The translations under genes were made by a program, and so were the position numbers. A stretch of DNA of 64,000 nucleotides, from the sequence record MW349128.1, one strand, 5' to 3'. Shown one piece after another: positions 11,955 to 61,453 of the stretch (the stretch's first letter is position 1; the number at the start of each line of letters is the position of its first letter). Source of the DNA: Staphylococcus phage Machias. Under the pieces are notes generated by a model. That model had not been told where the DNA came from. It saw only the letters and a list, made by a program, of their open reading frames with translations, and searched no databases.

Positions 11955-11984
11955 CCCCTAATACTATTAATTTAGTATTAGGGG
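11955..11984. terminator. bidirectional terminator, conserved family (CCCCTAATACT / ATTAATTT / AGTATTAGGGG)
   Basis: perfect 11-bp stem between convergent genes; same stem/loop family at 26477, 47725, 59675, 61421. Confidence 0.75.
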
Positions 11985-11998
11985 AAAATTATTATTTT

Positions 11999-12274
11999 TT
12001 ATTTCTTACTGTCTAATTCAGCTAATTTTAATTTAGCTTTAGTCGCATATTTTTGACGGATTATATCACGCCATTTTTTACGAGCACGAGCAGCTTTTTG
12101 ATATTTAAAGTAAATTGGATCTTGAGCTTCTTTAGCAGCAACTAAAGCTAATTGGTTCAATCTACGTTTACGTTTAGTTTGTTCATCTAAACGCATGATA
12201 TTTTGCTCACGTAAAAGAGCTTCATCAGTAGCTTTCATAATTTGCTCTTCTAGTGGAGATAAATTATTAGACAA
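11999..12274 (-). CDS. small basic (K/R-rich) protein, possible nucleic-acid-binding
   Basis: ORF of 91 aa; KRKRRLNQ and KKWRDIIRQKYATKAKLK segments. Confidence 0.45.
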   Translation of the reverse strand: MSNNLSPLEEQIMKATDEALLREQNIMRLDEQTKRKRRLNQLALVAAKEAQDPIYFKYQKAARARKKWRDIIRQKYATKAKLKLAELDSKK

Positions 12275-12406
12275 AATATTTCACATCTCTTTCTTAGATT
12301 TATTTAGTTTATTAATAAATAGTATGTTTTGTTAATGATAGTTTAAAAATTTTAATAATAAAGAATAACTAGATTTTTATAATTATGTAGGAGGTTAGTA
12401 AACCAA

Positions 12407-13409
12407 ATGACAACAGAATTAAAGAATAAAGAAGAAAGAAAAAGAGCTTTAACTGGATATTTAGAACAATTGGTATGGATGGTTCAAAAGAATAATCCTG
12501 ATTTTGATAAAGAAGAAATATTAAAAGAATGTAGAGAATTTGTAAAAGAAAATGTTAAACCTGTTATGACAGAGGTATCAGGTCAAGAAATGAATGTTGA
12601 TTCTTTATTACGTACAGTTATTAATTCAAATTTAATAGTAACTGGATCAGGTTCGATTTATCAAACACAATCACAAAGAAAAAATTTAAATGCAGAGATG
12701 TTAAAAGACTTCATTGATTCACGTAAAGTAGCTAAACATAATATGTTTATAAGTAAAGGTGTAGACGATGTTAAATATCATAAATATATGAATGAACAAA
12801 AAACAATTAAGATCTTGGCTAATAGTTACTATGGTGCTATGATACAAGGAAATAGTATTTTCTATGATCCTTATTCAGGACCTGCTATCACATATAGTGG
12901 TGTTGATATTGTTACGACTTCAGCAATAGCTTTAGAAAGATTTATAGGTAGTAAAATATTCTTTATGAATATTAGTGAGATTTATAATTATATCGTAAGA
13001 ATATGTCAAGAAGAATATAAAGATCATGATATTAAGATAAATTCAGTTCCTACTGATAATGAAATATTAAAAGGTTTATTGGATAACGTAGAATATAATT
13101 TCTCTGAAGATGAAGAAAATGATTTAAAAGAATTCTTTAGTAATTTAACTCAAGATGAGAAAAATAGAGTTTATTTTAAAAATAATCTTTATGGTTTATT
13201 AGATCACACTGATATATTTGATAATAAAATTAGTAAAATGACAGGTAGAGAAGATTTCTTAGATCCGAACGAACCACCTGAAGATATGATACCATTATTA
13301 GATGAATTATTTGATATATTAGAAGACTGGGTTATTTATAATTATCAAGATTACAATAGAATGTATAGAATGAATTATAAAAAACGTAGAAGTGTACTTA
13401 CAATCGATT
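12407..13409 (+). CDS. DNA polymerase family B, C-terminal subunit, exon 1 (motif B KILANSYYGAM, degenerate motif C region, KKRRSVL = KKRY motif)
   Basis: alignment to T4 gp43 (KxxxNSxYG, ...KKRYALNVWD); own strong RBS aggagg and ATG; exon ends at CGATT (13405..13409), which pairs with intron IGS GGTCG. Confidence 0.75.
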
Positions 13410-14050
13410 ATGATAACATGGTCGCTGCTTAAAGTAATTTAAGTTGATTCACATTATTAATTGCTGAGAAAGTATTTATTAAATTAATCAGCATCAATCA
13501 ATATGATTGTTCAACGACTAAATATAATGATACTCATAAAGAGTATATGATATAGTCTATTTTATATTTAAAAATATAATATTAAAGACAGATAGTAACT
13601 TCGTACATTTAGATCCATTATATCAAAAAATGAAAGAAAAGAAACCTGAAGATTTCCCTATTGCAGAAAATGGTTTAGAAGATAAATTAGAACAACGTGT
13701 AGGTAATATATCTATTATTAACTATCAAATTACTAAATTGCTAGAATTATCTTATCATAGATTCTGTAAAGATTTAGGATTAGAAGATGAACATTTAGGT
13801 GTTATATCTATGAAAAATGAGTATGTAAATGCTCCAGTATACAGTAATGTGTATTAGTAAATATTATTAATTGCTGAGACAAAATAAAATTAATCAGCAT
13901 CTTCAAATAATGAAGTTCAACGACTAAATATAATAATTCTTAATAATAAAGAATATGATATAGTCTAGTCTTATATTTAAAATATAAGTATAAACGTTTT
14001 ACTTGACAAACAGTTAACAACAGATAAAAAGAAAACTTATGCTTCATCAG
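13410..14050 (+). mobile_element. composite (twin/tandem) group I intron region: core A 13410..~13625, internal ORF 13630..13857, core B ~13825..14050
   Basis: two complete copies of P3-P4 (ATTAATTGCTGAG), P4'-P6 (AATCAGCATC..), J6/7-P7 (GTTCAACGACTAAAT), P8, P7' (GATATAGTCTA) and P9 hairpins; joining 13409 to 14051 restores ...KKRRSVLTID-L-IQQEGNLVQPPDLDVKGM, colinear with T4 ...KKRYALNVWDMEGTRYAEPKLKIMG. Confidence 0.6.
13630..13857 (+). other. 75-codon ORF between intron cores A and B: either an intron-borne ORF or an insertion exon of polB (unresolved)
   Basis: open frame with no SD sequence; does not align to the T4 gp43 KKRY-to-KIMG segment. Confidence 0.3.
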
Positions 14051-14697
14051 TAATTCAACAAGAGGGTAATTTAGTTCAACCACCAGACTTAGATGTTAAA
14101 GGTATGGCTATTAGAAAAGTTAATACTAATAAACGTATTAGAGAATTATTTACTGAAATATTACAAAAAGATATCTTAGAAAATAAAACTGGAATTGATA
14201 GAATTGGAATTATACGTAAATATAAAGAAATTGAAGAAATGATTAAAAAATCATTAGAGAATGGTGATATTGAATTCTTAAAACCTGGTAAAGCTAATAA
14301 CGCAGAAGTATATAAAGATCCTTATACACAAATGAATTATAGAGCAGCTTTATCATGGAATTTAATGTATCCAGATAAAGAAATATCTCTTCCAGCAAAT
14401 ATCTTAATGGTTAAATTAAATATTAAATCATTTGGAGATATTAAGGATAAAGTTGATGATGAAGAATTATTAGATAAATTTAGAGAAGTATTTAGAAACG
14501 AAAGATTAGTTAAAAATGGAATGAATGTAATTGCAGTTGAAGGTAATACAATTCCTGAAGAATTTAGACCTTTTATTGATTATGATTCAATGATAGAAGA
14601 TCATATTAAACCAGGTAAAGATATTATTGAATCTATTGGAGTTAAAGTGTTAGAATCTTCAAATAGTTCTTTCGTATCAAATATGGTTAAATTTTAA
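14051..14697 (+). CDS. DNA polymerase family B, C-terminal subunit, last exon (thumb region)
   Basis: in-frame continuation ...QQEGNLVQPPDLDVKGMAIRKVNTNK aligns to T4 MEGTRYAEPKLKIMGLETQKSSTPK; omega-G at 14050. Confidence 0.65.
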
Positions 14698-14720
14698 AAA
14701 AAAAAAGGAGGGTATATTTA

Positions 14721-15224
14721 ATGAGATACTTTTTATTTAAACCTAAAAAGTTTCAAGAACTATTTGAAACTGAAAAGAAATTATCATCTGTCTTTGAATA
14801 TTATAGAGATATGAAAAAAGATATTGTATTTAAAGTTGATGAAAATGATGATATTTTTATGATGTTATATAATATTTTAAGTGATGAAATATTACCTTTT
14901 ATAAGATGTAAAGTATACAATAAAAAAGATGGAGAAATACTAAAAGCATCAGAATTATATGTCCCTATTAGTTTGGATATTCATAAAGAAATAAATATAA
15001 ATAAAAATAGTATAGAGTATGATTCTAACATGCCTTATAAACATGGTTTAATTGAATGTCCATCTATTGACGAAGATAATACTAACAATTATCTTCGTTT
15101 AAATTTTCAATATAATGACAAAGATGATTATTTTTATATTTACTTAAATGATATTTATGCTATTTTTGAAGAGATAGATAAAACAGAATTTATGAAAATA
15201 GAAACTAAAAAGAATTTTATGTAG
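14721..15224 (+). CDS. hypothetical protein (167 aa)
   Basis: ORF with RBS aaaggaggg. Confidence 0.5.
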   Translation: MRYFLFKPKKFQELFETEKKLSSVFEYYRDMKKDIVFKVDENDDIFMMLYNILSDEILPFIRCKVYNKKDGEILKASELYVPISLDIHKEININKNSIEYDSNMPYKHGLIECPSIDEDNTNNYLRLNFQYNDKDDYFYIYLNDIYAIFEEIDKTEFMKIETKKNFM

Positions 15225-15283
15225 ATTGAAAAAATTTATTATTTTCATATAAAAATTCTTGCTTAATTTTTAATTTTATGTTA

Positions 15284-15300
15284 AAATATATATTATAAAA
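15284..15300 (+). promoter_or_regulatory. promoter-like motif AAATATATATTATAAAA
   Basis: consensus copy 60 nt upstream of gene 15362; followed by weak hairpin AGAATA..TATTCT. Confidence 0.45.
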
Positions 15301-15361
15301 ACGAGAATATGTCACTATTAAAATTAAACTTATTCTTAATAAATTTGGAGAGTGAAAAGAA

Positions 15362-16672
15362 ATGGCAAAACAATCAGATGTATTTAGTAAAAAGAAATCA
15401 TTATATAGAAAAAATGGTAGAAAAATACCTTCTAAGTTTAGAAAGATGGATGTAGATGGTACTTGGTTTTATAGATTTGATCATAATAGATTTATCATTG
15501 ATAATTTAACTAGATTTATGGAAGATAAAGAATTAAAAAAATTATTAAATGATTATAGAAATAATTATGATAATAAAGAAAAATTTAATAATGATTGTTA
15601 CTTCTTTGAATTAGATAAAGATATACCTAAATTAAATAAATCTCAATTAAAGATATTCTTCACTCATTTATCTAGAAAACATATTGGAAAAGATTTCTTA
15701 AAAAATATTACTTTGAAAGATAATTCTAAATTAGAAATAAAAGAATTTGATGATTTAGAAATATGGTCAAGAGAACCTGATAAAGAAGAAGTATATGACG
15801 TTGGTTATCTTGATATGAAAGATTATAGAATGATTGCTCATATTGATCATGAAAATGAAGAAATTGTTATTCATACAGATATTGAAGAAGAAAATCCAAA
15901 ATCATATAGTACTTTAATTAGTTCTTTAGAATCAATTGAAATTGATGATTATTATGAAGATATTAGCTCTGATGAAATAAGAATTAAATTAAATGACTTT
16001 AATTTAAGAAAAGTATTTAATAAGACTAATAGTAAAATATTTAAAGTTATTTTACCAGTTACTTATAATTATGAAGGTTTTGATGATCAAGTGTCCTTCT
16101 TATTTGATAATTTCAGTAAAACATATATTAAACAACTTGAAAAAGAAGAATACGATAAGAAAATGCCTATCGGAGGACAACCTTATCATTTAAGACCTGA
16201 AAATAGACCTTATTATGCTAAACGTAGAATAATTAAAGATTGGAATATTTATGAAATATTTGATGAAGATAAAGATGGATATAAATTATTCAGTGTTAAA
16301 GATGATCAAGGGTTTATTTATTTAATATACTATATTGGTAAGAATTATCATGGTAAAGGTATAATAGTTAACGGTAAAGAATCTCCAGAACTTCAAGATC
16401 CGTCTAATTATAGAAAATCAGTTAAATTAAAAGATATTTATTACAGTGTATTAATTTCACAAGCTAAATATAATCTAATGAAGAAAAATAAATTTGATAT
16501 TTATACAGCTTTTGATACATCCAACCCTAAATATATGACAATTTCAGATGAAGAAAATATTCATACAACTGATTTCTTAATACCTGAAAGACCATTTAAA
16601 ATTAGACAAACTAAATTTAGAGAAGATAAAATATCAAATTTAAAAGATAAATTCGTAGAGGAGTTTGAATAG
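15362..16672 (+). CDS. hypothetical protein (436 aa)
   Basis: ORF with RBS ggagagtgaaaag. Confidence 0.55.
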   Translation: MAKQSDVFSKKKSLYRKNGRKIPSKFRKMDVDGTWFYRFDHNRFIIDNLTRFMEDKELKKLLNDYRNNYDNKEKFNNDCYFFELDKDIPKLNKSQLKIFFTHLSRKHIGKDFLKNITLKDNSKLEIKEFDDLEIWSREPDKEEVYDVGYLDMKDYRMIAHIDHENEEIVIHTDIEEENPKSYSTLISSLESIEIDDYYEDISSDEIRIKLNDFNLRKVFNKTNSKIFKVILPVTYNYEGFDDQVSFLFDNFSKTYIKQLEKEEYDKKMPIGGQPYHLRPENRPYYAKRRIIKDWNIYEIFDEDKDGYKLFSVKDDQGFIYLIYYIGKNYHGKGIIVNGKESPELQDPSNYRKSVKLKDIYYSVLISQAKYNLMKKNKFDIYTAFDTSNPKYMTISDEENIHTTDFLIPERPFKIRQTKFREDKISNLKDKFVEEFE

Positions 16673-16675
16673 TAT

Positions 16676-17410
16676 ATGGAGGATAATGAATATATGTATA
16701 CAGAAGATGAAATGAATACAGGTCATATAGTTGCGGATTGTGATGAAGTTTTAGTCAATATATCGCCAAAGATAGTTCAATTAATGCATGAAGATTATGA
16801 ATATTATAATCAATTCTTTAGATTATCTGAAGATTTTGATTATAATAAACATTATGATGTAATATTAAGTAGACCTGAATACTATATAGATCAATGGTTA
16901 GTTAGAAAAGATGTTTATAATAACTTTTCAGAAAAAGAAGTTAATGAAGCAAGAGAAAGACTACAAAATGAAATTATATTTAAAAAAGATTTATATGATG
17001 AACTTCAACCAACTAATTTAGGTAGAAGTTTATCATATACCATTAATACACCGTTAATGAATAAATTAACTATCGTTACTAAAACTTCAGATAATAATCT
17101 AAAATCTAAAGAGAAGTTTTTAAAAACTTTATTTAGAGGAAGTATGGATAAAGTTGATATATTCTACTTAGAACCAGATGAGAAAAAATCTGATGTGATT
17201 AATTCTTTAGGATATGTTACTAGAATATATGAAGATGAAGTAAGTAATATTAGTGATATTATAAAGAACTGTCAAAATGTAACACAAACAGGAATTGATA
17301 TTCCTTCATTGGGATATAATCAAGATATCGATGAAGGAACGATATTAAAAGCTAAAGAAAAGAAAATTGATTTAAACTATTTCAGTTATATGGGACAAAG
17401 TATTAAATAA
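16676..17410 (+). CDS. hypothetical protein (244 aa)
   Basis: ORF with RBS tatggagg, tightly coupled to the upstream gene. Confidence 0.55.
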   Translation: MEDNEYMYTEDEMNTGHIVADCDEVLVNISPKIVQLMHEDYEYYNQFFRLSEDFDYNKHYDVILSRPEYYIDQWLVRKDVYNNFSEKEVNEARERLQNEIIFKKDLYDELQPTNLGRSLSYTINTPLMNKLTIVTKTSDNNLKSKEKFLKTLFRGSMDKVDIFYLEPDEKKSDVINSLGYVTRIYEDEVSNISDIIKNCQNVTQTGIDIPSLGYNQDIDEGTILKAKEKKIDLNYFSYMGQSIK

Positions 17411-17412
17411 AC

Positions 17413-17470
17413 AAATAATCCATGTTTGACAAATTCAAGTCAAACATGGATTTATTATAATTTTTTTTTT
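17413..17470. terminator. rho-independent terminator (AATCCATGTTTGAC / loop / GTCAAACATGGATT + T10)
   Basis: 14-bp perfect stem followed by a poly-T run. Confidence 0.75.
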
Positions 17471-17508
17471 ATAAAAATTGACATTGAGGAAGGAAATTAA
17501 AATGAAAA

Positions 17509-17802
17509 ATGGACATTAAAGATTTCATAATAGTTTTTTCTTTATTCTATCTTATTTTAGTTGCTATACCGTCTGTAATATTCTTAAGTAAAATTAATTA
17601 CAAAAAGAGTAATAAAATTATTATATTATTCTTTAATATAATAATCGTTTTATTTATATGTATTACTGTATTACTGTATAATTTATTTAATAAAGAAGAT
17701 AATAAAGAATCACTAAAATATTATAATAAAGAAGAAAATATAATAGATTATTATATCGAAAAAGATATTAATCCATTATTAAAAGAAAGTGATGTGAAAT
17801 AG
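17509..17802 (+). CDS. small membrane protein (two predicted TM helices)
   Basis: FIIVFSLFYLILVAIPSVIFL and IIILFFNIIIVLFICITVLLY hydrophobic segments. Confidence 0.5.
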   Translation: MDIKDFIIVFSLFYLILVAIPSVIFLSKINYKKSNKIIILFFNIIIVLFICITVLLYNLFNKEDNKESLKYYNKEENIIDYYIEKDINPLLKESDVK

Positions 17803-17805
17803 TAA

Positions 17806-18957
17806 ATGAAAGTAGATATGATAGATATTGAACAAGTCATAACTGATACAAATGCTAAAGAAGTAACCAATCCTGTATTTTTCGATTCAGGTATACTACC
17901 AAAAGAAGATGGTTTATTTTCATATGATATATTTGGTTTAATAGGTACTCCTGAAAGAAAAACCAATTTAGGTTGGATTAATTTAAAGGATAAATACCTT
18001 AATCCGGTGGCTTATAAAGCATTAAAAGATTTAGATAAAAATATTGAACTATGTATTCAGGGTTCAGAGTATTTTAAAGTAGAAAAAGGTCAATTAGTTC
18101 CTTCAGAAGATGGAGATACTGGACTGAATTTCTTATATGAAGTATTTGATGATTTAAAATTTAGAAAGAATGATTCTCGTATTAGATCTGAAAAAATTGA
18201 TATGATTAAAAATACAGATAAGCAAAAAATATTTGTAGATAAATGGCTAGTAATACCTGCTTTTTATAGAGACTTTAATCCTAATGAAACTTCAGGAGAA
18301 ATTCAAGATACTGAAGAAGTTAATAATATGTATTCTTCTATTATACGTTCTGTAGATGCTATTAGTTTTAATTCTTTTGGTTTTATTGCTAACAGTACTA
18401 AATATAATATACAAAATACATTATTTGAAATATATCAGAAATTTACTTCAGGAGAATTATCAGGTAAAACTGGTTTTATGCAAAAACGTATATTGGGTAA
18501 AACAGTAGATAATAGTACTCGTGCAGTTATTTCTTCACCTAAAATTAATTCGAATAGATGGGATGAAATGCAGATAGAGTTTGGTGAGTTAGGTGTACCA
18601 TTAACTCAATTAGTTACCTTATTTTTACCATTCTTTAATAAGTATATAATTGATTTTATTGAACTTCATAAAGATGCTTTCCAAACAGCTACTGGAAATG
18701 ATGAGAAAGAATTATCATTAGAAGAAGTGTATGAACAATTCGATGATAAATCTATTAAGAATATGCTAGAATTCTTTATTAAAGATCCTAATGAAAGATT
18801 TAGTCCTATATATGTAAATGATAGAGAAGGTAAACGCCATAAAGTTAAATTATTTGAAAAAACTTTGGGTAGAGATTTTACTGTAATTGATTTACTTTAT
18901 ATTGCTGCAACCGAAATAGTAGAAGATAAGCATGTTATGTATTCAAGATATCCGATT
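17806..18957 (+). CDS. multisubunit RNA polymerase beta-prime-like subunit, N-terminal half, exon 1
   Basis: PKEDGLFSYDIFG ~ E. coli KPERDGLFCARIFGP; GKTGFMQKRILGKTVDNSTRAVIS ~ [23 protein letters not shown]; exon ends MYSRYPI (NRAPTLH region) at CGATT 18953..18957. Confidence 0.75.
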
Positions 18958-19152
18958 AATAAAATGGTCGCTGCTTAAAGTGATTTAAGTTGATAAACAT
19001 TGTTAATTGCTGAAATACTATTAATAAAGTTAATCAGCATCAATTAAATATAATTGTTCAACGACTAAATGCAATGATACTATTTAATAGTATATAATAT
19101 AGTCTAATTTATATAATACTTATATAAATATAATAAATGCGAAAATTTCTTG
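18958..19152 (+). mobile_element. group I intron C (compact, no ORF)
   Basis: first 31 nt identical to intron A (ATGGTCGCTGCTTAAAGTRATTTAAGTTGAT, IGS GGTCG); cores TTAATTGCTGAAA / AATCAGCATC / GTTCAACGACTAAATGC / ATATAGTCTA; 3' end approximate. Confidence 0.65.
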
Positions 19153-19341
19153 AACGTAGCACCTGCTAAAATTAAAATATTAACTACTGTTGATACTATT
19201 CCAGAAATAATTTTAGATGATATAGTATTAAAAGATTACCCTAAAGTAGTAAGAGAGTATCCTGTTGATGAAGATATTTTCTTAGATACTGCAATCATAC
19301 ACAATTCATATGCTCAAGCACTTGGTGCAGATTTTGATGGC
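19153..19341 (+). CDS. RNAP beta-prime N-half, exon 2 (ends ...AQALGADFDG = first part of the NADFDGD catalytic motif)
   Basis: in-frame segment ending GADFDG immediately before intron D; start boundary uncertain (ORF track 19150..19365 reads through into the intron). Confidence 0.5.
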
Positions 19342-19491
19342 AAAATTTTATATTACCATCATTAAATAATATTAATTGCTGGAAAATCTAATAAGATAAT
19401 CAGCATCAACTTAATAAAAGTTGTTCAACGACTAAATATATTACTAAAGAAGATATAGTCTAATTATATGTAAATACATGTATATAAAATG
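19342..19491 (+). mobile_element. group I intron D (compact, no ORF)
   Basis: ATTAATTGCTGGAAAA / AATCAGCATCAAC / GTTCAACGACTAAATAT / GATATAGTCTAATT; omega-G at 19491. Confidence 0.65.
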
Positions 19492-19635
19492 GATATGATT
19501 TCAATACGCTCTTTATGGTCTGTAGAAGCAAATAAAGAAGCTGATAAACTTATTAATAAGAAAACTAATTACTTAAACTACACAGGAAATAGTATACGTG
19601 GAGTTGGTAATGAGAGTAAGTTTGTATGCTCTCAA
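19492..19635 (+). CDS. RNAP beta-prime N-half, exon 3 (DMISIRSLWSVEANKEADKLI...)
   Basis: aligns to E. coli [21 protein letters not shown] directly after NADFDG; the 3' end could lie anywhere 19606..19635. Confidence 0.5.
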
Positions 19636-19781: not shown

Positions 19782-19802
19782 CTAAAGAATAATTTAAAAA
19801 TT

Positions 19803-22417: not shown

Positions 22418-22436
22418 TAAATATATATTATAAAAA
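22418..22436 (+). promoter_or_regulatory. promoter-like motif TAAATATATATTATAAAAA inside the paralogue array
   Basis: consensus copy abutting ORF 22444 with no SD (real start probably 22504, which has RBS gaggag). Confidence 0.4.
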
Positions 22437-22503
22437 TGAGATAATGAATCTAACAGAGTTCATTATCTCTAATAATATCTTAAATAGAGGAGATGAAGTT
22501 AAT

Positions 22504-26453: not shown

Positions 26454-26472
26454 TAAATATATATTATAAAAA
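26454..26472 (+). promoter_or_regulatory. promoter-like motif TAAATATATATTATAAAAA
   Basis: consensus copy immediately upstream of hairpin 26477..26506 and gene 26532. Confidence 0.45.
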
Positions 26473-26476
26473 CGTT

Positions 26477-26506
26477 ATCCCAATACTATTAAATTAGTAT
26501 TGGGAT
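26477..26506. terminator. conserved-family hairpin (ATCCCAATACT / ATTAAATT / AGTATTGGGAT)
   Basis: member of the CCCAATAC stem family; sits between the promoter motif and an RBS, so it may be a 5'-leader structure as well as a terminator. Confidence 0.65.
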
Positions 26507-26531
26507 TATTATAATAAAAGGAGTTAAATAA

Positions 26532-41721: not shown

Positions 41722-41751
41722 ACCAAACTCTAATTAACTTTAGAGTTTGGT
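41722..41751. terminator. terminator hairpin (ACCAAACTCTA / ATTAACTT / TAGAGTTTGGT)
   Basis: 11-bp stem after the beta-prime C-half stop; loop of the ATTAAYTT family; followed by a TATATTATATAAAAA promoter-like element at 41751..41765. Confidence 0.65.
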
Positions 41752-46793: not shown

Positions 46794-46824
46794 GGTATAA
46801 TGTGATTAATTTCACATTATACCA
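46794..46824. terminator. terminator hairpin (AGGTATAATGTGA / TTAATTT / CACATTATACC)
   Basis: 11-bp stem with TTAATTT loop after the stop at 46786. Confidence 0.65.
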
Positions 46825-47715: not shown

Positions 47716-47724
47716 AAATATAAT

Positions 47725-47754
47725 CCCCAATACCTATTAATTTAGGTATTGGGG
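47725..47754. terminator. bidirectional terminator, conserved family (CCCCAATACCT / ATTAATTT / AGGTATTGGGG)
   Basis: between convergent genes; CCCAATAC stem family. Confidence 0.75.
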
Positions 47755-47772
47755 AAATTTTATTATTTTTTT

Positions 47773-51222: not shown

Positions 51223-51235
51223 TTAAATTAATAAA

Positions 51236-53300: not shown

Positions 53301-54028
53301 CTTTCTTTTTCTAACTGATAATTATGTTTGATTTCTTCTTCAGTAAGAGTTCTGTTATATATTCTAGTTGACATTAAACTTCCTTCTAAATCATTCATAA
53401 TCTCTATATCAAACATTTTTTCATATTGAGGTTTTATTTCTGTAGTGTTTGATCCGTTTTCTTTATAATCTCCATTAATATAACATTTAATTCCATTAGG
53501 ACTGAAAACTGCAGTAAAATGAAAAGCTTCTGAACCAACCTCGAATACATTTCTCGATAGGTAATTTCTATTCCATCCATCTTCCTTTAAAGAATTTTTC
53601 ATGCACAACATCAATTGATTTGAATCATGATAAGTTAAGGACCAACCCATATAATAACCACAATATATTATATGATTTGTTCCACTATTTTCAGTTGCAT
53701 TCATTTTTCCAGTCCATTCTACAGTTAAATTATCTAACATAAATCTACCATCAGAACCATCAACAATTATCTTGTCATCTATTCCGTCAAAATTAAGATT
53801 ATTATTACTATATCCACTTTCACTATTAAAAGCAAAATTATTTAATTTTCCATCATTATCAATATTTATCATATTTTTTGCAATACTTTTATTAGCACTA
53901 TCATTTTTCATGCTTGCAAAATCATACCATAGAATTAAACCATCTTTAATAGGATTCGGATAGATTAAATCTTTACCTTTATATAGAAAAGATGATTTAA
54001 GACTTCCTATATTTATCATTTTAGTCAT
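53288..54028 (-). CDS. LamG/concanavalin-A-like jellyroll protein (paralogue B of 52461..53300)
   Basis: LYKGKDLIYPNPIKDGLILWYDF ... TRIYNRTLTEEEIKHNYQLEKERWGL. Confidence 0.6.
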   Translation of the reverse strand: MTKMINIGSLKSSFLYKGKDLIYPNPIKDGLILWYDFASMKNDSANKSIAKNMINIDNDGKLNNFAFNSESGYSNNNLNFDGIDDKIIVDGSDGRFMLDNLTVEWTGKMNATENSGTNHIIYCGYYMGWSLTYHDSNQLMLCMKNSLKEDGWNRNYLSRNVFEVGSEAFHFTAVFSPNGIKCYINGDYKENGSNTTEIKPQYEKMFDIEIMNDLEGSLMSTRIYNRTLTEEEIKHNYQLEKERWGL

Positions 54029-54033
54029 CCTTT

Positions 54034-55188
54034 CTATATAATAAAGTAAAGAGTATTAGGGTCTTTTTCTTCTAAAGTTTCATACTCTTCTCTAGTAAAA
54101 ACTTTAGGAGGAGCTGAATCACCTTTTTCACCTTTTAAGTTAGATAACTGTCCCTCAGTGAAATCAGAATATTTGAAGGGGTCGCCTTTTTCACCTTTTA
54201 ATTCTTCTTTATCTTTAGTAGTTAAATCATTAAAAGTTAATTTATCTCCTTTTTCACCTTTTAATTCATTTAACTGTTCTTCTGTAAAATCAGAATATTT
54301 GAAGGGGTCGCCTTTTTCACCTTTTAAGTTAGATAACTGTTCCTCTGTAAAATCAGAATATTTGAACGGTTCTCCTTGAGGGCCTTGAGGACCTTGATCA
54401 CCTTCATACATTTCAGCATTTTCTATCATATAATTTTTAAGATTCTCTTTATAATCTAATAAATTATTTTCAAAATCGTTTATTCTATTATTAAATGATT
54501 CTTGTGAAGATTTTAATTCTTCAGATTTATCTTTTATAAGGTTTAATTTTTCTTCAACTTTAATTACACTATTTTCCATATCCTTAATATAATTTGCAGT
54601 TTCACTTAAACTTTGCATTTCATCATTAAGACTCATTGTATTGTTATAATTACTATTGAACTGTTCTTTGACTTTTTCAAAATCAGATAAAGTGGCTTTC
54701 ATATCATTCAACTTAGTATTCATATCTTCTATTGTTGAAATCACATCTTCTTTTTCAGATTGAAGATCTGATTTTTTATTTTCTATGCTGTTTTTAAATT
54801 CATCAAGATCACTTAAGTATGCATCAAGATTATCAGTGTCAATTGAATTTTCTTTAACTTTGTTAAATTTATCTTCCATTTCTTTATTAATCTTTTCACT
54901 GTCATTAGACATAATCTTTATTTGTTTAAGTATTTCATTAACTTGTAGATACTTTAGTTCAATAAATTCTTCTACCGATTTTATTTCTTCAACTTCGTAT
55001 TTCCCATCTTCATTTATATCTACATAATCATATTCAGTTATTCTCTTATATTGTATATTCATTAAGTCATATAATTTTAAAATATCTTTATCAACATAAA
55101 AAGGTTTATTTATTGGTCCCATTCCTTTATTAGGTATATATGTTTTATGGGGAACCGTTATTAAAACTTTACCATCTTCTTTATTCAA
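54034..55188 (-). CDS. fibre-like virion protein: shared N-terminal module, central coiled-coil, C-terminal collagen-like / KGEKGDPFKYSDFTEEQLSNL x4 repeats
   Basis: GDQGPQGPQGEP Gly-X-Y triplets; four ~21-aa tandem repeats; N-terminal TYIPNKGMGPINKPFYVDKDILKLY shared module. Confidence 0.6.
   Translation of the reverse strand: MNKEDGKVLITVPHKTYIPNKGMGPINKPFYVDKDILKLYDLMNIQYKRITEYDYVDINEDGKYEVEEIKSVEEFIELKYLQVNEILKQIKIMSNDSEKINKEMEDKFNKVKENSIDTDNLDAYLSDLDEFKNSIENKKSDLQSEKEDVISTIEDMNTKLNDMKATLSDFEKVKEQFNSNYNNTMSLNDEMQSLSETANYIKDMENSVIKVEEKLNLIKDKSEELKSSQESFNNRINDFENNLLDYKENLKNYMIENAEMYEGDQGPQGPQGEPFKYSDFTEEQLSNLKGEKGDPFKYSDFTEEQLNELKGEKGDKLTFNDLTTKDKEELKGEKGDPFKYSDFTEGQLSNLKGEKGDSAPPKVFTREEYETLEEKDPNTLYFII
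54110..54380. repeat. ~63-bp tandem DNA repeats (x4) encoding the KGEKGDPFKYSDFTEEQLSNL repeat
   Basis: near-identical units GGGGTCGCCTTTTTCACCTTTTAA...; these create the spurious + strand ORF 54158..54379. Confidence 0.7.
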
Positions 55189-55359
55189 AAGGTTTCTCCT
55201 ACTTTCTGTTTAAATTTTTTCAAATAAATCCCCCTAATACACTTTATAAATCGATGATTGTCTCTTATTTTTAAATTGGCTCATCGTTTAGTAATGTATT
55301 AGGGTATTTATTCAAAACAGCGAAAAATAATTAATATTATATAATAATGTTATAAAATT

Positions 55360-57276
55360 CTAACCATTAATAATTTTAAAAATATTTTCGTTCAATAGAT
55401 TTTGTTCTAATCTATCTTCATTCATTAGCATTTCTTTTAATTCTTTTTCACTTTTATCTTCAAAATCAATAGTTTTTCCATTGATAATTAATGATGATTC
55501 ACTAACTTTAATTTCTTTATTGATATTAAGATCATTGATATTTTCACTTAAAGCTTTTTTGAATTTTTCTTCATCTTTATTAGGTACATTTTCATAAGCT
55601 TCAAAAACAATATCTTCATAGAATTCTTCTAAAGACTCTTGATGACCTTCATATAATACTTCATCTTTATTTTTCATTTCAGCATTAATTGATTCTTCTA
55701 ATTGTTCTAGATCAACTTCATTATTATTAAGTTCCTCTTTTACACTATGATCAACTTCATCTAAAGGATTTAAAAAGTTTTCTAAAATTCCATTTAGTGA
55801 TTCATTAGTGACACGTTGTAATAATTGAGTATTGAATTCTTCTTTAAGTGAATCAAAATCAATTTCATTACTAGTGTAAAGTTCTTTAAGTAATTTATTT
55901 CCTTTAGGAGCTACAACAATTACTTTCTTAAATCCTTTACCAAAGTCAACTTTATCTACAAGTAAAGAAGATGGATTATATACAGAAGGAGTTTGTGAAT
56001 AAGATTCTTTAGATACAACTATATCTACACGTTTACCTAATGATTCGGAAATTGTAGTTGCATATCTTAATAAATCTTTAGGTGAAAATTCTTCATTAGT
56101 TTCAAATTCATTAATAACTTTAGTTTTAAATTCAACATCATCAGAACCACAATTTTCACAAACTAATTCAGCTTCATTAACGTTAGGGTCAACTTCTTCT
56201 TGAACACCACACTCATTACAGATAACTTCTCCAATTTCTTTTTCTTGTTTAATCGCTTCATTCATATCTTTGCTACAATTTTCACAGATTAATTCATTGG
56301 ATTCATTAAGAGAAAGTTTACTACCACAATCTTCACAAATTTGTTGACCGTTTTTAATTTTTCCAGTTTCATTTAATAATCCACGCATAGTTTCAATTGA
56401 TTCATTAGTAACAAAAATTTGTTTTCTACTTTTAGATTCTAATTTAAAAGTATTTAAAATGGATTCACTAATTTTCTTAACTTCACCATTAAAAGCTTTT
56501 ACAATAGCAGTATCGTAATTTTCATTTACTTTAACAAAAGGAAATGCTTTATTTTCCTCATCTACGTAAGTTTCATTCGCAACAATATTTTTACTTTGAT
56601 TTTTTACTTCACTAGATTCAGGTGTACCTATTGTATATCCTACTTCGGCATCAGTATCTAACAAAGCATTTTTTAAATCTACAAAAGTAAATTCAGGTTT
56701 AGGGTCTTTATCGTATAAATAAGTTTCAGTAACTGCTCCTCCAACACTAGCTGTACCGTTAGCTGTTGACATTCCTCCATCACTAACAGAAGGTGCTGAA
56801 GTACTTGCACTAGATGTATTAACTCCATAAGTTGAATGAGGACCAAAAGTAGTAGGAACTACCATTTGAGAATCTAAGAATTTAGCTCTTAATTCAGTAT
56901 AACCAGGTTGTGTTTCTTCTTCATCTTCTTTATCATCTTCATTAAATAAAAGATTTTCTTGAACGTCATTATTTGCAGTATCAACATCAATTACTTCATC
57001 TTTATCTAAGATAATAGGATTATCGTATTCAGGATCATCAGAATCAATAATTTTTACATTATCTTCTTCTTCAGCATCTTCTATTTCATCAAGATCATCA
57101 GATTCCTCATCATCAATTTCTTCTTCATTGATTAATTTATTGAAAGTTTCTTCAATTTCTTCATCATCTTCAGGAATATCTCTTTTTAATTCCTCATCAT
57201 TACTATCTAAATCATTTCCTTCATATAAAAACATATCTTCTTCATTTAAATCTGTTTTATTTATTTTTTTAGACAT
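55360..57276 (-). CDS. acidic protein with tandem Zn-ribbon motifs (CEDCGSK...CENC, CNECG...CENCG)
   Basis: four CxxC pairs; D/E-rich N-terminus; Zn-ribbon paralogous to 60340(-). Confidence 0.5.
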   Translation of the reverse strand: MSKKINKTDLNEEDMFLYEGNDLDSNDEELKRDIPEDDEEIEETFNKLINEEEIDDEESDDLDEIEDAEEEDNVKIIDSDDPEYDNPIILDKDEVIDVDTANNDVQENLLFNEDDKEDEEETQPGYTELRAKFLDSQMVVPTTFGPHSTYGVNTSSASTSAPSVSDGGMSTANGTASVGGAVTETYLYDKDPKPEFTFVDLKNALLDTDAEVGYTIGTPESSEVKNQSKNIVANETYVDEENKAFPFVKVNENYDTAIVKAFNGEVKKISESILNTFKLESKSRKQIFVTNESIETMRGLLNETGKIKNGQQICEDCGSKLSLNESNELICENCSKDMNEAIKQEKEIGEVICNECGVQEEVDPNVNEAELVCENCGSDDVEFKTKVINEFETNEEFSPKDLLRYATTISESLGKRVDIVVSKESYSQTPSVYNPSSLLVDKVDFGKGFKKVIVVAPKGNKLLKELYTSNEIDFDSLKEEFNTQLLQRVTNESLNGILENFLNPLDEVDHSVKEELNNNEVDLEQLEESINAEMKNKDEVLYEGHQESLEEFYEDIVFEAYENVPNKDEEKFKKALSENINDLNINKEIKVSESSLIINGKTIDFEDKSEKELKEMLMNEDRLEQNLLNENIFKIING

Positions 57277-57314
57277 ATTAAAATTCTCCTTTATTTTCTG
57301 TATTTTACAGTTTA

Positions 57315-58583
57315 TTATTTTTTAAATTTAGATTCAATATTATTTTTTATAATAAATAATATGCATGGTAATAATATATAATCTTCCATATCTAATTCAA
57401 ACTTATCATCATAATACTTAAATATTTTATCAAGAATTTTTTCATCAATATTATCTTTTTGTAAATAAAGTACAATTAATTTATAACGTTCATCAAGATC
57501 AGTTAAACTATTTACACCTTGATAATCTTCATTAATTCTATTAATCTTACTTATATTAGATAATTCGGTGAAATCATTCATATCATTTAATATTTTTGTA
57601 TCATGAAGAACTTTATTCATAAAGTTAATCTCCAAATATTTCTCTCTAAACATCTTTAAAAAGTTATCTTTAGTTTCATTTAAAGTTATTATATTAGGTA
57701 ATTCTTTTCTATCTTTCAATCTTTCATATAAAGAATATTTATAATTCTTTTGGTTTATTCTTTCATTTTTAGGATTTTTATCTTTATAAGGCATTATGTT
57801 TGATAAGTAGGTACTAGACTTTACTAATAAATTATTATCGTATATAAATCTAGATAAATTTAAATCTATATATTTTATATTTGCTACTGCACTAATTTCA
57901 TCTTCATAATAAATGAATGTATTTAATGAAGAATTATAGAAATTATCAATAATTAACGCAGATATTTCATCGGAGTATTTAATACTATTATTAACTTGAT
58001 AGAAATCTTCTTCTAATATTAATGATTTATTATCTGTACCAATATTAGAAAATACAGTTCTATAAGTATTAGAAACTTGTCTTTCAATATCTTCTGTATT
58101 TACATTAAAATTCTGGTAACTTATTTTATAATATGATGAATTTTCTAATGAACTCATTTCTACATTATTTACTCTATATATTCTACTAGTTGCATTTTCT
58201 TTAGATTGATACTGAAATACAATAAAATCATCTGGAAGAGGTTCAATAGTTCCAGGTAATATTACAGCTTCACTTTCTAAATCTTTTTCAGTTCCCCACT
58301 CTTCATCCCATTCTATAGTAGGATTCATTTCAGTAACAGAATATATAGGAAAATCTTTTAATTTATTATATTTAAGTGGAGAATTATCTCCAACAATTTC
58401 TTCAACATTATCTAATGATCTATCTGAGGTTGAGTTCTCATGATCTTTACTGTAATAAGTAACAAAACTAGGAGCTCCAGCTTGGAATTTACTATACTTT
58501 TCAGTACCTGAAAGATATGAAGATACATAACTATTTACAATATCTTTCGGTTGAAGATCATCATTACTAATAAAATAACCCAT
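57315..58583 (-). CDS. hypothetical protein (422 aa)
   Basis: ORF with RBS aagtgaggaaaa. Confidence 0.5.
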   Translation of the reverse strand: MGYFISNDDLQPKDIVNSYVSSYLSGTEKYSKFQAGAPSFVTYYSKDHENSTSDRSLDNVEEIVGDNSPLKYNKLKDFPIYSVTEMNPTIEWDEEWGTEKDLESEAVILPGTIEPLPDDFIVFQYQSKENATSRIYRVNNVEMSSLENSSYYKISYQNFNVNTEDIERQVSNTYRTVFSNIGTDNKSLILEEDFYQVNNSIKYSDEISALIIDNFYNSSLNTFIYYEDEISAVANIKYIDLNLSRFIYDNNLLVKSSTYLSNIMPYKDKNPKNERINQKNYKYSLYERLKDRKELPNIITLNETKDNFLKMFREKYLEINFMNKVLHDTKILNDMNDFTELSNISKINRINEDYQGVNSLTDLDERYKLIVLYLQKDNIDEKILDKIFKYYDDKFELDMEDYILLPCILFIIKNNIESKFKK

Positions 58584-58668
58584 TAATTTTCCTCACTTTC
58601 TTATTATTATTATTATTTATACGATATGTTAATGTTAACATTAAATTTATATAAAAAATAATAATAAA

Positions 58669-59667
58669 ATGAGGGAAGATACTATGTTAGAGATGAAAGA
58701 ATATGAAATAGATTTTGTTAAAGAATCAATTTCTTTTTATGAAGTAATTAATGAAGAAGAATCTTCAAATAAAAATAAAAAGAGTGTATTAGAAAAGATT
58801 AAGAAAATGCTTTTAAAAATTAAAAATTTCTTAGTAAATATTTATAAGAAATTCAAGAAATTTATAGTTAATCTAATTAATAAAATTAAAGATTATTCTA
58901 AGAAAGAGGAAGCATATATAGCTGAAATAGATAAAGTTAAAAAAGAAAATGAAAAAATTAAAAAAGCAAATTCAAGTAATTATATTATTCATGCTTCAGA
59001 GAAAAAAGAAATTAATGATAAAATAATGTCTAAGAAAAAAGCTTTAAGTGAAATTAAAATAAGAGATGGTTATGAAGGATTAATCGAAAAAGGTAATATA
59101 GGATTATTAAAAGAACTTTATACATTAACTGAAATTAAATATTTCTTTATGTCATTAAAAGGTGAAGTTGATATAAACAGTTCAGAAAAAGAAGTTAAAA
59201 AAAGTGTAAAACACTTAGATGAATTAATATCTGATTATAGAAATTATAAGAGTTCTTTAAAAACTATTTCAGCTGAAGAAGCAATTAATGAAACTAATGC
59301 TAGTGATATTAAATATTATAGTATGAAAAAAATTGATAGCTTCACAAATGAATTAAAATTATTCTCTAAAGATATGGATAAAATTTATAAAGAAGTTGAA
59401 GGAGAACTTAATGAGGATTTAGAAAGAGCAGAGTATTGTATTAAAGCAGTTAAGAATCCAGAATCAATTATAACTAAAGAAGACATAGATGAACTTAATA
59501 TGTTTATTGCATCAAATAGAAAGAAATTAACTTATATTAATTTCTTAAATACTGAGATTTCTTATATTATTCCTACAATTGTAACTGAAAGAAAAAATAT
59601 TCTTAAAGCAGTCAAACTAGGTATAGAAATTGAAACGTTACAAAATAAATTAAAATTAATTAAATAA
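58669..59667 (+). CDS. hypothetical coiled-coil protein (332 aa)
   Basis: RBS gagggaag. Confidence 0.5.
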   Translation: MREDTMLEMKEYEIDFVKESISFYEVINEEESSNKNKKSVLEKIKKMLLKIKNFLVNIYKKFKKFIVNLINKIKDYSKKEEAYIAEIDKVKKENEKIKKANSSNYIIHASEKKEINDKIMSKKKALSEIKIRDGYEGLIEKGNIGLLKELYTLTEIKYFFMSLKGEVDINSSEKEVKKSVKHLDELISDYRNYKSSLKTISAEEAINETNASDIKYYSMKKIDSFTNELKLFSKDMDKIYKEVEGELNEDLERAEYCIKAVKNPESIITKEDIDELNMFIASNRKKLTYINFLNTEISYIIPTIVTERKNILKAVKLGIEIETLQNKLKLIK

Positions 59668-59674
59668 TAATAAT

Positions 59675-59706
59675 ATCCCAATACCTATTAATTTAGGTAT
59701 TGGGAT
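59675..59706. terminator. bidirectional terminator, conserved family (ATCCCAATACCT / ATTAATTT / AGGTATTGGGAT)
   Basis: between convergent genes; identical core to 47725. Confidence 0.75.
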
Positions 59707-59711
59707 AATTT

Positions 59712-60302
59712 TTATAAACCGAATTCTTTATCTAAAGATTCTTCTAAAGAATCTAATTCTTTTTTATTATCATTTTCTTCTTTATTTTCTTCAGATAAAA
59801 TTTGCTCTGTAACGCCTTCTAAATATTCAAATAATTTGTCTTCAAAATCTTCATTAATACCTAATTCTTCCATACTTTCATTAACTGATTTAGATTTCTT
59901 AGGTTTTTTATCTGCTTTAGTTGTTTTAAATATTTTTAATAAATCTTTTCCATGTTTATTTTGGAATGATACAGCTTCTTGCATTGTTCCGAAACGATTA
60001 TAAATAAAAACGCTTCTATCAAAGAAACTCTGCTTACCATTAGGTTTAGTAAAAGAAAATACTAAACTTAATTCGTAATCTATAGTATGAGAATCCTTAC
60101 GTGTAGTAGCATGTGTAAATAATTTAGCGTCAGAATAATTTATCTTATAGCCTTTTTTAACTTCAATACTGTATTTCTTTTTAGCTACACGTACAGCAAA
60201 TTTTTCTTTAATTTCTTCAGGAGTTAATCCTATAAAAATTTTTCTAGCTACTTTTTTAGCTTTATCTAATTTTTTACCTTCTTGAATGTAAATATCTTCC
60301 AT
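59712..60302 (-). CDS. hypothetical protein (196 aa); C-terminus ...LDSLEESLDKEFGL duplicated at the N-terminus of 60340(-)
   Basis: ORF with RBS aaaaggtaggaaat. Confidence 0.5.
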   Translation of the reverse strand: MEDIYIQEGKKLDKAKKVARKIFIGLTPEEIKEKFAVRVAKKKYSIEVKKGYKINYSDAKLFTHATTRKDSHTIDYELSLVFSFTKPNGKQSFFDRSVFIYNRFGTMQEAVSFQNKHGKDLLKIFKTTKADKKPKKSKSVNESMEELGINEDFEDKLFEYLEGVTEQILSEENKEENDNKKELDSLEESLDKEFGL

Positions 60303-60339
60303 AATTTATTTCCTACCTTTTTTTTATTTTTAATAATTA

Positions 60340-61383
60340 TTAGTTTAAAAAGAATTCTTCATTCAATTTATTTTCTAATTCTTCTACCACTTTATCATCT
60401 TCATCAATTTTAGGTTTTTTATCGGGAGCTTTCTTAAAGATAGAAATAAATTTATTTCCATTACTTTGAGCCCATTTTTGTGCTTCTTTGAAACGGTCTG
60501 CAACTATTCCAATAGGTATTCTTCTAATTTTATCTTTACCTTTATATTTAATAGGTACCTCTAAAGCGGCATTTTTACCACCAGTACGTTTGGCTACAAC
60601 TACAGCATTACCTGAATCAATTCTAATGCCTTTACTTTTAGCTTTTATTTTAAAATTCATACAAGCTTTAGCAAAATCCGCTTCAAGAGTATCAGGTTCA
60701 ACAATTCCTTCTTGAACTGCAACATCGGAAGTGTTACCACATTCTTCGCATACTAATTGACCTGATTCATTTGGAGACATTTTAGACCCACATTCTTCAC
60801 AAATAGGTTCTTCTTTATCAGTATCAATATCACGATTTAATTCTTCATTTAATTTTTTCTTACTATTTTTCAATTTTTCTTTATATTCTTTAAGCTTTCT
60901 TTTTTTCTCTTTTCTATCTTTAGTATTTCTAATATCCTCAATATCTTTTTGAAGTTCTAGTTTTAATTTATCTTTCTTAATTCTACTTTCAGCAGCTTTT
61001 TTAGCTTCATCTGAAGGTTTCATTTTTTTAAGTTCAGGGAATACAGATGATTTATTTCTATTCATTAAGCTTTCATATTGTCCGCCAGATGCAATATTTC
61101 TATTAACTCTAATTACAGCAAAGTCTCTTTCTGTGTTTTCTCCACTAACTAGGTTTTTACATTTTACTTCTAAGTTTATATTAACTCCCGCATAAACAAA
61201 TTTACTAGGTTGAAAGTTAGCATAACCTTGTTTAGTTAATCTATCAATTCCTTTTTGATATTGATTTATAATAACGCCTTTTAAATCATTAAAAAGGTTT
61301 TGTTCTGGGTTTTCATTAACTAATCCAAATTCTTTATCTAAAGATTCTTCTAAAGATTTTAAATTCATATTTAATTTCCTCAT
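60340..61383 (-). CDS. Zn-ribbon protein (CEECGSKMSPNESGQLVCEECG); N-terminus MRKLNMNLKSLEESLDKEFGL
   Basis: ORF with RBS gagg; Zn-ribbon paralogous to 55360(-); immediately downstream of the RNAP beta gene. Confidence 0.5.
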   Translation of the reverse strand: MRKLNMNLKSLEESLDKEFGLVNENPEQNLFNDLKGVIINQYQKGIDRLTKQGYANFQPSKFVYAGVNINLEVKCKNLVSGENTERDFAVIRVNRNIASGGQYESLMNRNKSSVFPELKKMKPSDEAKKAAESRIKKDKLKLELQKDIEDIRNTKDRKEKKRKLKEYKEKLKNSKKKLNEELNRDIDTDKEEPICEECGSKMSPNESGQLVCEECGNTSDVAVQEGIVEPDTLEADFAKACMNFKIKAKSKGIRIDSGNAVVVAKRTGGKNAALEVPIKYKGKDKIRRIPIGIVADRFKEAQKWAQSNGNKFISIFKKAPDKKPKIDEDDKVVEELENKLNEEFFLN

Positions 61384-61420
61384 TTCTTTAATATTTATAA
61401 TAATATTGTGTTAAATAATA

Positions 61421-61453
61421 ATATCCCAATGATCAATATAATCATTGGGATAT
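61421..61453. terminator. terminator hairpin, variant of the conserved family (ATATCCCAATGAT / loop / ATCATTGGGATAT)
   Basis: 13-bp stem 6 nt after the RNAP beta stop on the minus strand. Confidence 0.7.

Follow-up and report, generated by a model that had tools for sequence, protein, structure and literature searches.

The 64,000-nucleotide stretch of the Staphylococcus phage Machias genome analysed here (sequence record MW349128.1, below called the window) contains a set of strong hairpins that begin just past the ends of genes and share a hexaloop on different stems. A first-pass annotation had named ten such hairpins and read them as terminators. All ten are present, with RNA folding energies of -15 to -23 kcal/mol (z -4.4 to -9.1). 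Nine hairpins carry the + strand hexaloop TTAATT, TTAACT or TTAAAT, closed by an A-T pair, and four of these nine lie between convergent genes. The stems have 12-16 bp, with 3-6 G-C pairs each that are gathered at the stem base, and each strong hairpin begins 3-37 nt past the stop codon of a sense-strand gene. We consider it likely that these are Rho-independent-type terminators capped by a UUANU-type loop, a preferred and structured hexaloop that has been kept by selection and spread as hairpin cassettes were reused.

The window has a G+C content of 24.4% and is 96-97% identical overall to Staphylococcus phage vB_StaM_PB50 (PB50). Identity to PB50 DNA is 97.4% over bases 40000-60000, and the 911-aa product of the open reading frame (ORF) at 29795-32530 is 96.6% identical to a PB50 protein. 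Phages MarsHill, Madawaska, S6, SA1 and LY01 are about 80% identical to bases 40000-60000, and the Bacillus phages AR9 and PBS1 are more distant matches. PB50 and its relatives are AR9/PBS1-like jumbo phages that encode both a virion and a non-virion multisubunit RNA polymerase; by kinship to AR9 and PBS1, uracil-containing DNA is expected in them. We compared the window with the whole PB50 genome, the syntenic regions of MarsHill, SA1 and LY01, 150 kb of AR9, phage K, 100 kb of Twort and 100 kb of Listeria phage A511, and with 100 dinucleotide-preserving shuffles of the window itself. A census of PB50 gave 94 strong hairpins, 27 of them with a UUANU-type loop. Stems were compared in an alignment of 39 distinct hairpins of the UUANU type (A1), and loop preferences were read from an unbiased set, namely every strong PB50 hexaloop hairpin of unambiguous sense (n=25).

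At 1264..1293 (+ strand, -19.4 kcal/mol, z -9.1) the hairpin GAGGTAATGACA-TTAATT-TGTCATTACCTC has the convergent genes 1032-1259 (+) and 1306-3534 (-) on either side, and its PB50 orthologue carries the loop inverted, as AATTAA. Three others are putative bidirectional terminators: CCCCTAATACTA-TTAATT-TAGTATTAGGGG at 11950..11989 (+, -21.6 kcal/mol), between convergent genes, TCCCCAATACCTA-TTAATT-TAGGTATTGGGGA at 47724..47755 (+, -22.7 kcal/mol), where the genes switch from the + to the - strand, and ATCCCAATACCTA-TTAATT-TAGGTATTGGGAT at 59672..59709 (+, -21.8 kcal/mol), between 58669-59667 (+) and 59712-60302 (-). In MarsHill, SA1 and LY01 the stem of the 47724 site is swapped for CCCCTAACCTTA and the loop is the same. 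The hairpin at 7289..7326 (+, -22.8 kcal/mol, loop TTAATT) has a 16-bp stem that is unbroken only as sense RNA, needing two G·U pairs, and its loop is kept in MarsHill and SA1 on a wholly different stem. At 41722..41751 (+, -16.7 kcal/mol), 3′ of the gene for the non-virion RNA polymerase beta′ subunit, the loop is TTAACT; the orthologues show compensatory stem changes and either TTAACT or TTAATT. The hairpin at 46794..46823 (+, -17.3 kcal/mol) has a T-rich tail and the loop TTAATT (TTAACC in PB50), and at 5276..5307 (+) a T-run comes after a hairpin whose variant loop is TTAGGT, or TTAAGT in PB50. All of these were recovered by a generic terminator scan.

Two further loop-bearing hairpins, at 9632..9665 (+, -15.2 kcal/mol, loop TTAATT, weak T tail) and at 26475..26508 (ATCCCAATACTA-TTAAAT-TAGTATTGGGAT, +, -16.9 kcal/mol, TTAATT in PB50), stand behind early promoter motifs and are discussed with them. 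The first-pass annotation had sorted its hairpins into a five-member stem family, mostly between convergent genes, and a second group defined by the loop. One member of the family, at 61421..61453 (-18.7 kcal/mol), is the terminator hairpin of a gene on the - strand, has only the ATCCCAAT portion of the stem in common with the others and carries a different loop, of a short TAT type. Three of the five lie between convergent genes. Moreover, four of the five 'CCCAATAC' hairpins carry the loop of the second group, so the two groups overlap and are not separate.

That one loop recurs on different stems more often than chance allows is borne out by the shuffles. Under a strict criterion the window has 23 hexaloop hairpins, against a mean of 9.8 in shuffled sequence, and six with a TTAATT or AATTAA loop, against a mean of 0.03 and a maximum of 1. 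The 8-mer ATTAATTT, whose recurrence had first drawn attention, is not enriched in the window as a whole (56 copies against 51.5 expected). Its placement and strand are nevertheless non-random: 8 of its 27 + strand copies sit in hairpin loops, against none of the 29 on the - strand.

In the unbiased set the loop follows a clear pattern, with U at position 1 in 22/25, U at position 2 in 23/25, A at position 3 in 19/25, A at position 4 in 20/25 and U at position 6 in 20/25; the closing pair is A-U in 22/25. Position 5 is free (U in 10, C in 7, A in 6 and G in 2), which places these loops in the class of U-U-A-A-N-U hexaloops. The same consensus, with positions 1-4 and 6 fixed and position 5 free, is known from ribosomal RNA (rRNA): PMC2632901 describes UUAAUU, UUAACU, UUAAAU and UUAAGU as variants of one 16S rRNA hexaloop with structures determined by nuclear magnetic resonance (NMR) and an extruded penultimate base, and cites Zhang, Fountain and Krugh (2001) for the structures PDB 1HS1, 1HS3 and 1HS4. 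A fold with an extruded penultimate base predicts just the distribution of fixed and free loop positions that the phage hairpins show. The rRNA loop, however, is one ribosomal site closed by G-C, whereas the phage loops cap dozens of mRNA 3′ hairpins and are closed by A-U. The phage loop A-[U-U-A-A-N-U]-U would be a member of this structured family and presumably folds alike in the phage RNAs. In a genome of 24% G+C it appears to be a preferred cap made of almost only A and U, and may play the part that UUCG or GNRA tetraloops play elsewhere.

Tuerk et al. reportedly described, in 1988, C(UUCG)G hairpins in the intercistronic regions of phage T4. That case is similar in that one loop sits on unrelated intergenic stems and is explained by properties of the RNA loop and not by a binding protein. 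It differs in that UUCG is exceptionally stable, whereas in published melting experiments GCG-UUAAUU-CGC gave -2.36 kcal/mol, an ordinary stability (bioRxiv 10.1101/354332). We therefore rejected the idea of an exceptionally stable loop like UUCG, and claim only a structured, mildly favourable one.

The orientation of the loop indicates the molecule on which it acts. Judged by the adjacent gene end, TTAANN loops in PB50 are in sense orientation 18 times and antisense twice. The sense loop is T-rich and the coding strand is A-rich, so compositional skew is no explanation for this. Stem positions that depart from Watson-Crick pairing on the TTAANN strand are G·T in 13 cases and A·C in 2 (p=0.007). 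Turner parameters favour UUAAUU over the inverted AAUUAA by 0.9 kcal/mol, an effect of its U·U first mismatch, and DNA parameters give the opposite order. The 18:2 sense bias, the preference for G·U over A·C mismatches and the T-rich tails described below together point to intrinsic terminators that act at the RNA level, many of them bidirectional.

These observations leave very little room for elements that work as DNA, that is, cruciforms or single-strand hairpins serving as N4-like promoters, replication signals of the ssoA CS-6 kind or endonuclease targets. Such a role would suit perfect palindromes in AT-rich DNA, and the AR9-type non-virion RNA polymerase does read the template strand of its promoters (PMC5449584, PMC9209446). 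Yet the G·U bias and the order of stabilities fit RNA and not DNA parameters, and the T tails and the location directly behind stop codons are what termination calls for. The AACA element of late promoters is missing from the loop, and for the 4/9 hairpins at convergent gene pairs there is no downstream gene to be expressed. We consider a DNA-level function highly improbable. Three specific candidates of this kind were also rejected. The N4 hairpin promoter has a 5-7 bp stem and a 3-nt loop and acts at the DNA level, unlike the 12-16 bp stems and 6-nt loop found here with their RNA-type mismatch bias and their frequent place between convergent genes. Position, stem length and the same mismatch bias speak against a single-strand origin loop of the ssoA CS-6 type. 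The late-promoter motif AACA-N6-TA/G occurs neither in the hairpins nor beside them.

The loops can also turn around. Two PB50 copies with identical flanks have opposite loops (PB50 197357 and 225842), and together with the inverted loops between close relatives this means that small palindrome-mediated inversions occur in these genomes. Some hairpins are plainly related by descent: the stem families ATCCCAATACCTA and GAGGTAATGAYNA are reused hairpin cassettes, and near-identical 32-nt palindromes occur at no fewer than eight PB50 sites. Exact and degenerate scans of IMG/VR and of bacterial reference genomes gave no match to the two stem families, which are therefore neither host terminators nor widespread mobile elements. 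A third stem, GAGGTAATGACA, carries different loops in different settings. In PB50 it has the 7-nt loop TATTATT, or its inversion, at early start sites (95874, 117270, 125226 and 140165) and the TTAATT loop after stop codons (51617, 85987 and 273542, in joined coordinates).

It could be asked whether copying alone explains the shared loop, the hairpins being palindromic cassettes of the T4-type PeSL (a promoter and stem-loop unit described below) or REP-like kind, whose loop has no function. The near-identical palindromes in PB50, the restriction of the stem families to this phage clade, and the whole stems swapped among family members at orthologous sites (47724 and 7289) all suit this idea, as do gene-sized insertions and deletions (indels) relative to PB50 that adjoin the hairpins at 11950, 25851, 32706 and 22438. 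Gene indels must in any case fall in intergenic DNA; those seen here are compatible with cassette exchange, yet would be expected for any intergenic junction. Descent without function would, however, leave palindromic stems with unshared flanks and invertible loops in random orientation, and the 18:2 bias, correlated with the G·U bias, instead calls for selection on the loop itself. In addition, at least 12 unrelated stems carry the loop, and the unrelated phages K and Twort use it on quite different short stems. Copying as the whole explanation is thus quite improbable. We prefer two sources for the frequency of the loop, which would be selection on the RNA and the reuse or exchange of a few cassettes such as ATCCCAATACCTA and GAGGTAATGAYNA. 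As a separate observation, gene-sized insertions, deletions and replacements relative to PB50 have their junctions at or beside hairpins at 11946-11954, 25896-25914, 32680-32699 and 22487-23648.

The anatomy of the hairpins is that of intrinsic terminators, as the first-pass annotation had proposed: a G/C stem-loop, a U-rich tract on its 3′ side and a place at the gene end in sense orientation. The tails are 59% T against a background of 38%, with a mean longest T run of 4.7, and their first 8 nt are nearly free of G and C. The generic terminator scan, run over bases 1-20000 and 40001-60000, found 15 candidates against 2.3 expected and 13 against 3.2 and recovered the named hairpins, and the MarsHill GenBank record annotates orthologous hairpins as terminators. 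TTAT follows within 12 nt of 19/28 UUANU-type hairpins and 40/62 other hairpins against a background of 15%, although in an AT-rich genome this is a weak test. At convergent sites an A-tract precedes the hairpin and a T-tract follows it, and hairpins there would act in both directions. In the sense transcript each element would thus consist of a 12-16 bp stem with a G/C-rich base, the hexaloop and a U/A-rich tail, usually with UUAU. Read from this anatomy, the case for intrinsic-type terminators and 3′ stem-loops that act as RNA is well supported.

Only about one third of the phage terminators carry the UUAANU loop. Hairpins with other loops have the same tails, and the terminator at 17417..17452 (+, with the unrelated loop AAATTCAA) is an example of the remaining two thirds or so; further ones begin at 19804, 25851, 32706 and 39697 on the + strand and at 50288 and 51192 on the - strand. 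Sigma-70-like promoter matches are not enriched in bases 1-20000 and 40001-60000 (192 against 187 expected and 138 against 147), consistent with transcription independent of the host sigma-70 holoenzyme.

Stem-loops between genes could also serve mainly in RNA processing or stability. Like the processing sites of T7 and SP82, they would divide polycistronic transcripts, either through RNase III-type cleavage or by stopping 3′ exonucleases. The hairpins do occur between genes, co-directional pairs included, some have poor U tails, and two or three are part of 5′ leaders, a place in which strong termination would be a disadvantage. Phage RNase III sites typically have internal loops, however, and the perfect 12-16 bp stems seen here have none. 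Furthermore, most of the hairpins have a T-rich tail right after the stem, and those at convergent genes have A/T flanks, neither of which is required for processing. A mainly processing role is in our judgement improbable, and it is compatible with termination in any case, because a terminator hairpin also protects the 3′ end.

The leader hairpins bring in the early promoters of these phages. The early-promoter consensus of AR9 is AAATATATATTAT-N6-G(+1) (PMC5312081), and a near-identical motif has been predicted in MarsHill (bioRxiv 10.1101/2020.12.14.422802). A strict pattern, A[A/T]ATATATTAT-N6-G, has seven matches in the window, with predicted starts at 3649, 9623, 15303, 19886, 22438, 26474 and 45541. 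The first-pass annotation had placed two of its hairpins between a promoter-like motif and a ribosome-binding site, and this is upheld, as each follows a perfect match to the AR9 early consensus. The motif AAATATATATTAT-N6-G at 9604..9623 (+), of the type used by the virion RNA polymerase, predicts a start at G 9623 and puts the 9632 hairpin at +10 of the early transcript, 37 nt past the stop of 7372-9594. The motif at 26455..26474 (+) is conserved in PB50, MarsHill and LY01; it predicts a start at G 26474, and the 26475 hairpin falls at +2, 23 nt past the stop of 26041-26451. Given these distances to the upstream stop codons, both hairpins can also attenuate read-through, and from its sequence context the 9632 hairpin would be leader and attenuator both. 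About three copies per genome lie just downstream of an early start in this manner, and may likewise double as 5′ leaders or attenuators.

Promoter and stem-loop are combined at three sites in the window, and most UUANU-type hairpins have no promoter. The third site, 22419..22469 (+), has an early promoter motif at 22419-22431, a predicted start at G 22438 and a 5′-terminal hairpin at 22438-22469. This hairpin forms a class apart from the terminators, and its loop is not of the UUANU type. It illustrates a wider observation: behind many AR9-type early promoters a hairpin begins on the predicted +1 G itself or only a few bases from it, as in GAGATAATGAA...TTCATTATCTC at 22438-22469 and again at 3630-3680. 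Of the 27 strict early-promoter motifs in PB50, about 10 have a strong hairpin at the start, with -9.5 kcal/mol as the weakest energy admitted, and the mean folding energy at early starts is -6.7 kcal/mol against -3.6 in controls. On this pattern, hairpins at the early +1 could be 5′-terminal stem-loops that shield early mRNAs from 5′ exonucleases.

The stems vary far more than the loop. In A1, 11 of 13 stem pairs pass through all pair types and the closing pair is A-U in 35 of the 39 hairpins; since these were picked for pairing, a covariation count on them is circular for the percentage paired, and we used it solely to show which positions stay constant. One stem position does. The seventh pair from the loop (A1 columns 7 and 26) is A-U in 36 of 39, across at least 12 unrelated stems and flanked by pairs made of A and U only, so stems that had been called unrelated do have a near-invariant pair in common. 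At orthologous sites the loop behaves in two ways: at 7289 and 47724 it is kept and the stem replaced, and at 5276, 46794 and 11950 it is not kept.

Constancy of this kind could mark a protein-recognition element, in which the loop, the closing A-U and the mid-stem A-U would label 3′ ends in a regulon-like manner. The reader might be a factor for termination or antitermination, an RNase or a protein that binds mRNA, of host or phage. The strand specificity of the loop (18:2), its conservation over at least 12 unrelated stems, a mid-stem pair without thermodynamic rationale and the different loops that one stem carries in 5′ and 3′ contexts would all be natural for such an element. Enrichment of the loop in three Staphylococcus phage lineages, and not in AR9 or A511, would fit a factor from Staphylococcus. 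On the other hand, variation at position 5 with constancy at positions 1 and 6 is what the UUANU fold predicts without a protein (PMC2632901). Only about one third of terminators carry the loop, some orthologous sites have lost it, the difference of Staphylococcus phages from others (6/45 against 1/42) is not statistically secure, and no candidate protein was found. We regard such an element as unlikely.

Comparison with other phages separates the loop from the jumbo-phage polymerases. In AR9 (150 kb, 27% G+C), which has the polymerase family of the jumbo phages studied here and is closer to them than phiKZ, the stems are long and diverse and the loops are diverse and mostly tetraloops; a TTAANN loop occurs in 1 of 34 T-tailed hairpins, and no conserved terminator family was found in these 150 kb. 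In phage K a TTAATT or TTAAAT loop caps 4 of 26 T-tailed terminators (17149, 31325, 71141 and 122468) and is the commonest loop, and in the 100 kb of Twort it caps 2 of 19 (43569 and 72422). All are in sense orientation, on short stems of different sequence. None of the 8 terminators in the 100 kb of A511 has a UUANU-type loop. To our knowledge phages K and Twort encode no AR9-type multisubunit polymerases, and they presumably rely on the RNA polymerase of the host. A signal specific to the phage polymerase is therefore unlikely, and the loop does not track the jumbo-phage enzymes. It may track the host genus, with 6/45 in Staphylococcus phages and 1/42 in the others, a difference that is not significant. 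The S. aureus plasmid pLW043 was uninformative as a host-level control, because it has only five terminator-like hairpins.

The first-pass annotation had taken the shared loop to point to sequence-specific recognition, by a dedicated factor or as a phage-polymerase signal. This is not sustained: the loop has the 16S rRNA-type pattern, is present in K and Twort and is essentially absent from AR9. Overall, that interpretation is partly supported. Protein recognition is not needed to explain the data. A dedicated loop-binding factor is improbable, and two observations keep it in play: the mid-stem A-U pair is invariant, and the loop seems confined to phages of Staphylococcus. The fullest form of the idea is a 'terminator code', A-[UUANU-type loop]-U plus the mid-stem A-U, read by a Staphylococcus-associated factor that is host-encoded or shared among phages. 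We think this unlikely too; if true, it would explain the loop in three unrelated Staphylococcus phage lineages and not in AR9, a phage of Bacillus, and the factor would control termination efficiency or 3′-end stability.

Several points weigh against terminators with a preferred structured cap. The weak T tails at 1264, 9632, 26475 and 41722 are one, and these hairpins may be attenuators or stability elements only. Termination itself would follow from the anatomy of the elements; RNA-seq of AR9 found termination at predicted terminators (PMC5312081), in a different phage. The melting value of -2.36 kcal/mol for UUAAUU shows no stability beyond the nearest-neighbour prediction (bioRxiv 10.1101/354332), the nearest-neighbour model gives no reason for the conserved inner U-A-A, and an advantage of about 0.9 kcal/mol is small beside stems of -15 to -23 kcal/mol. 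Loss of the loop at 5276, 46794 and 11950 means that selection is weak or conditional, many copies are related by duplication so that counts overstate independent events, and the near-invariant mid-stem A-U pair has no explanation. Even with these points, intrinsic terminators capped by a UUANU-type hexaloop remain for us the probable reading.

Known systems offer two further comparisons. ONT-cappable-seq of two other jumbo phages, phiKZ and 201phi2-1, revealed a conserved stem-loop with TTAT behind it that is common to most of their predicted intrinsic terminators (PMC10914365, PMC11512511), and in phiKZ some terminators lie inside 5′ untranslated regions (UTRs) just after promoters (PMC10914365). 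These phages likewise have two multisubunit RNA polymerases and some bidirectional terminators at convergent genes. The TTAT after the hairpin has its counterpart here in 68% of cases, and two or three hairpins here follow early promoters. In phiKZ, however, the conserved part is a G/C-rich stem (CCYCCCC...GGGRRGG) with a variable 4-nt loop, whereas here the stems vary and the hexaloop with its closing pair is conserved. The phiKZ consensus BCCYCCCCHWWDGGGRRGGBY does not match the stems found here (ATCCCAATACCTA, GAGGTAATGAYNA and others), and there is no sequence similarity.

The second comparison is with the PeSL cassettes of T4-like phages, which combine an early promoter with a terminator stem-loop of phage-specific consensus stem and are tied to gene shuffling (PMC2839356, PMC4122927). 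They occur in many intergenic copies, each placed after a stop codon and before the following ribosome-binding site, and go with gene-sized indels. The sites at 9604-9665, 22419-22469 and 26455-26508 resemble such cassettes, and indels adjoin hairpins here as well. The differences are that PeSL promoters are sigma-70-like and used by the host polymerase, whereas those found here have the AR9-type virion-polymerase motif, and that most UUANU-type hairpins have no adjoining promoter. What is particular to the Machias hairpins is that conservation lies in an A/U-only structured hexaloop and not in the stem. This is a tidy detail of an ordinary element; it is not evidence of a new recognition system and does not point to a new mechanism.

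Two features of the window outside the hairpins may be recorded. The 15-mer AAATTAATCAGCATC, with up to two mismatches, has 8 copies against 0.6 expected, at 13481, 13887, 19027, 19393, 19663 and 33345 on the + strand and at 62320 and 62929 on the - strand. All of them lie in gaps where the genes for DNA polymerase and virion RNA polymerase are split into separate ORFs, so that a conserved element of introns is the probable reading of the 15-mer; at the gathering threshold Rfam gave no intron family in the window. In a cross-genome BLAST comparison, the - strand ORF 47773-49692 showed self-similar segments at 47833-48809 with an offset of about 240 nt and 70-79% identity, which indicates internal tandem repeats. 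Rfam 15 at the gathering threshold gave no matches of any kind over the whole window, and a tRNA search of the window gave none either.

For the biology of these phages, the result supplies a rule for about one third of Staphylococcus jumbo phage terminators: a stem, a UUANU-type loop closed as A-loop-U, and a U/A-rich tail. The transcription signals of this group are otherwise nearly uncharacterised, with only the early promoter predicted before. The hairpins also offer compact bidirectional terminators for engineering in S. aureus. A loop-binding factor, if it exists, would matter more widely for the study of Staphylococcus RNA metabolism. More generally, the finding suggests that a genome extremely rich in A and T can use a structured rRNA-type hexaloop as its preferred terminator cap.

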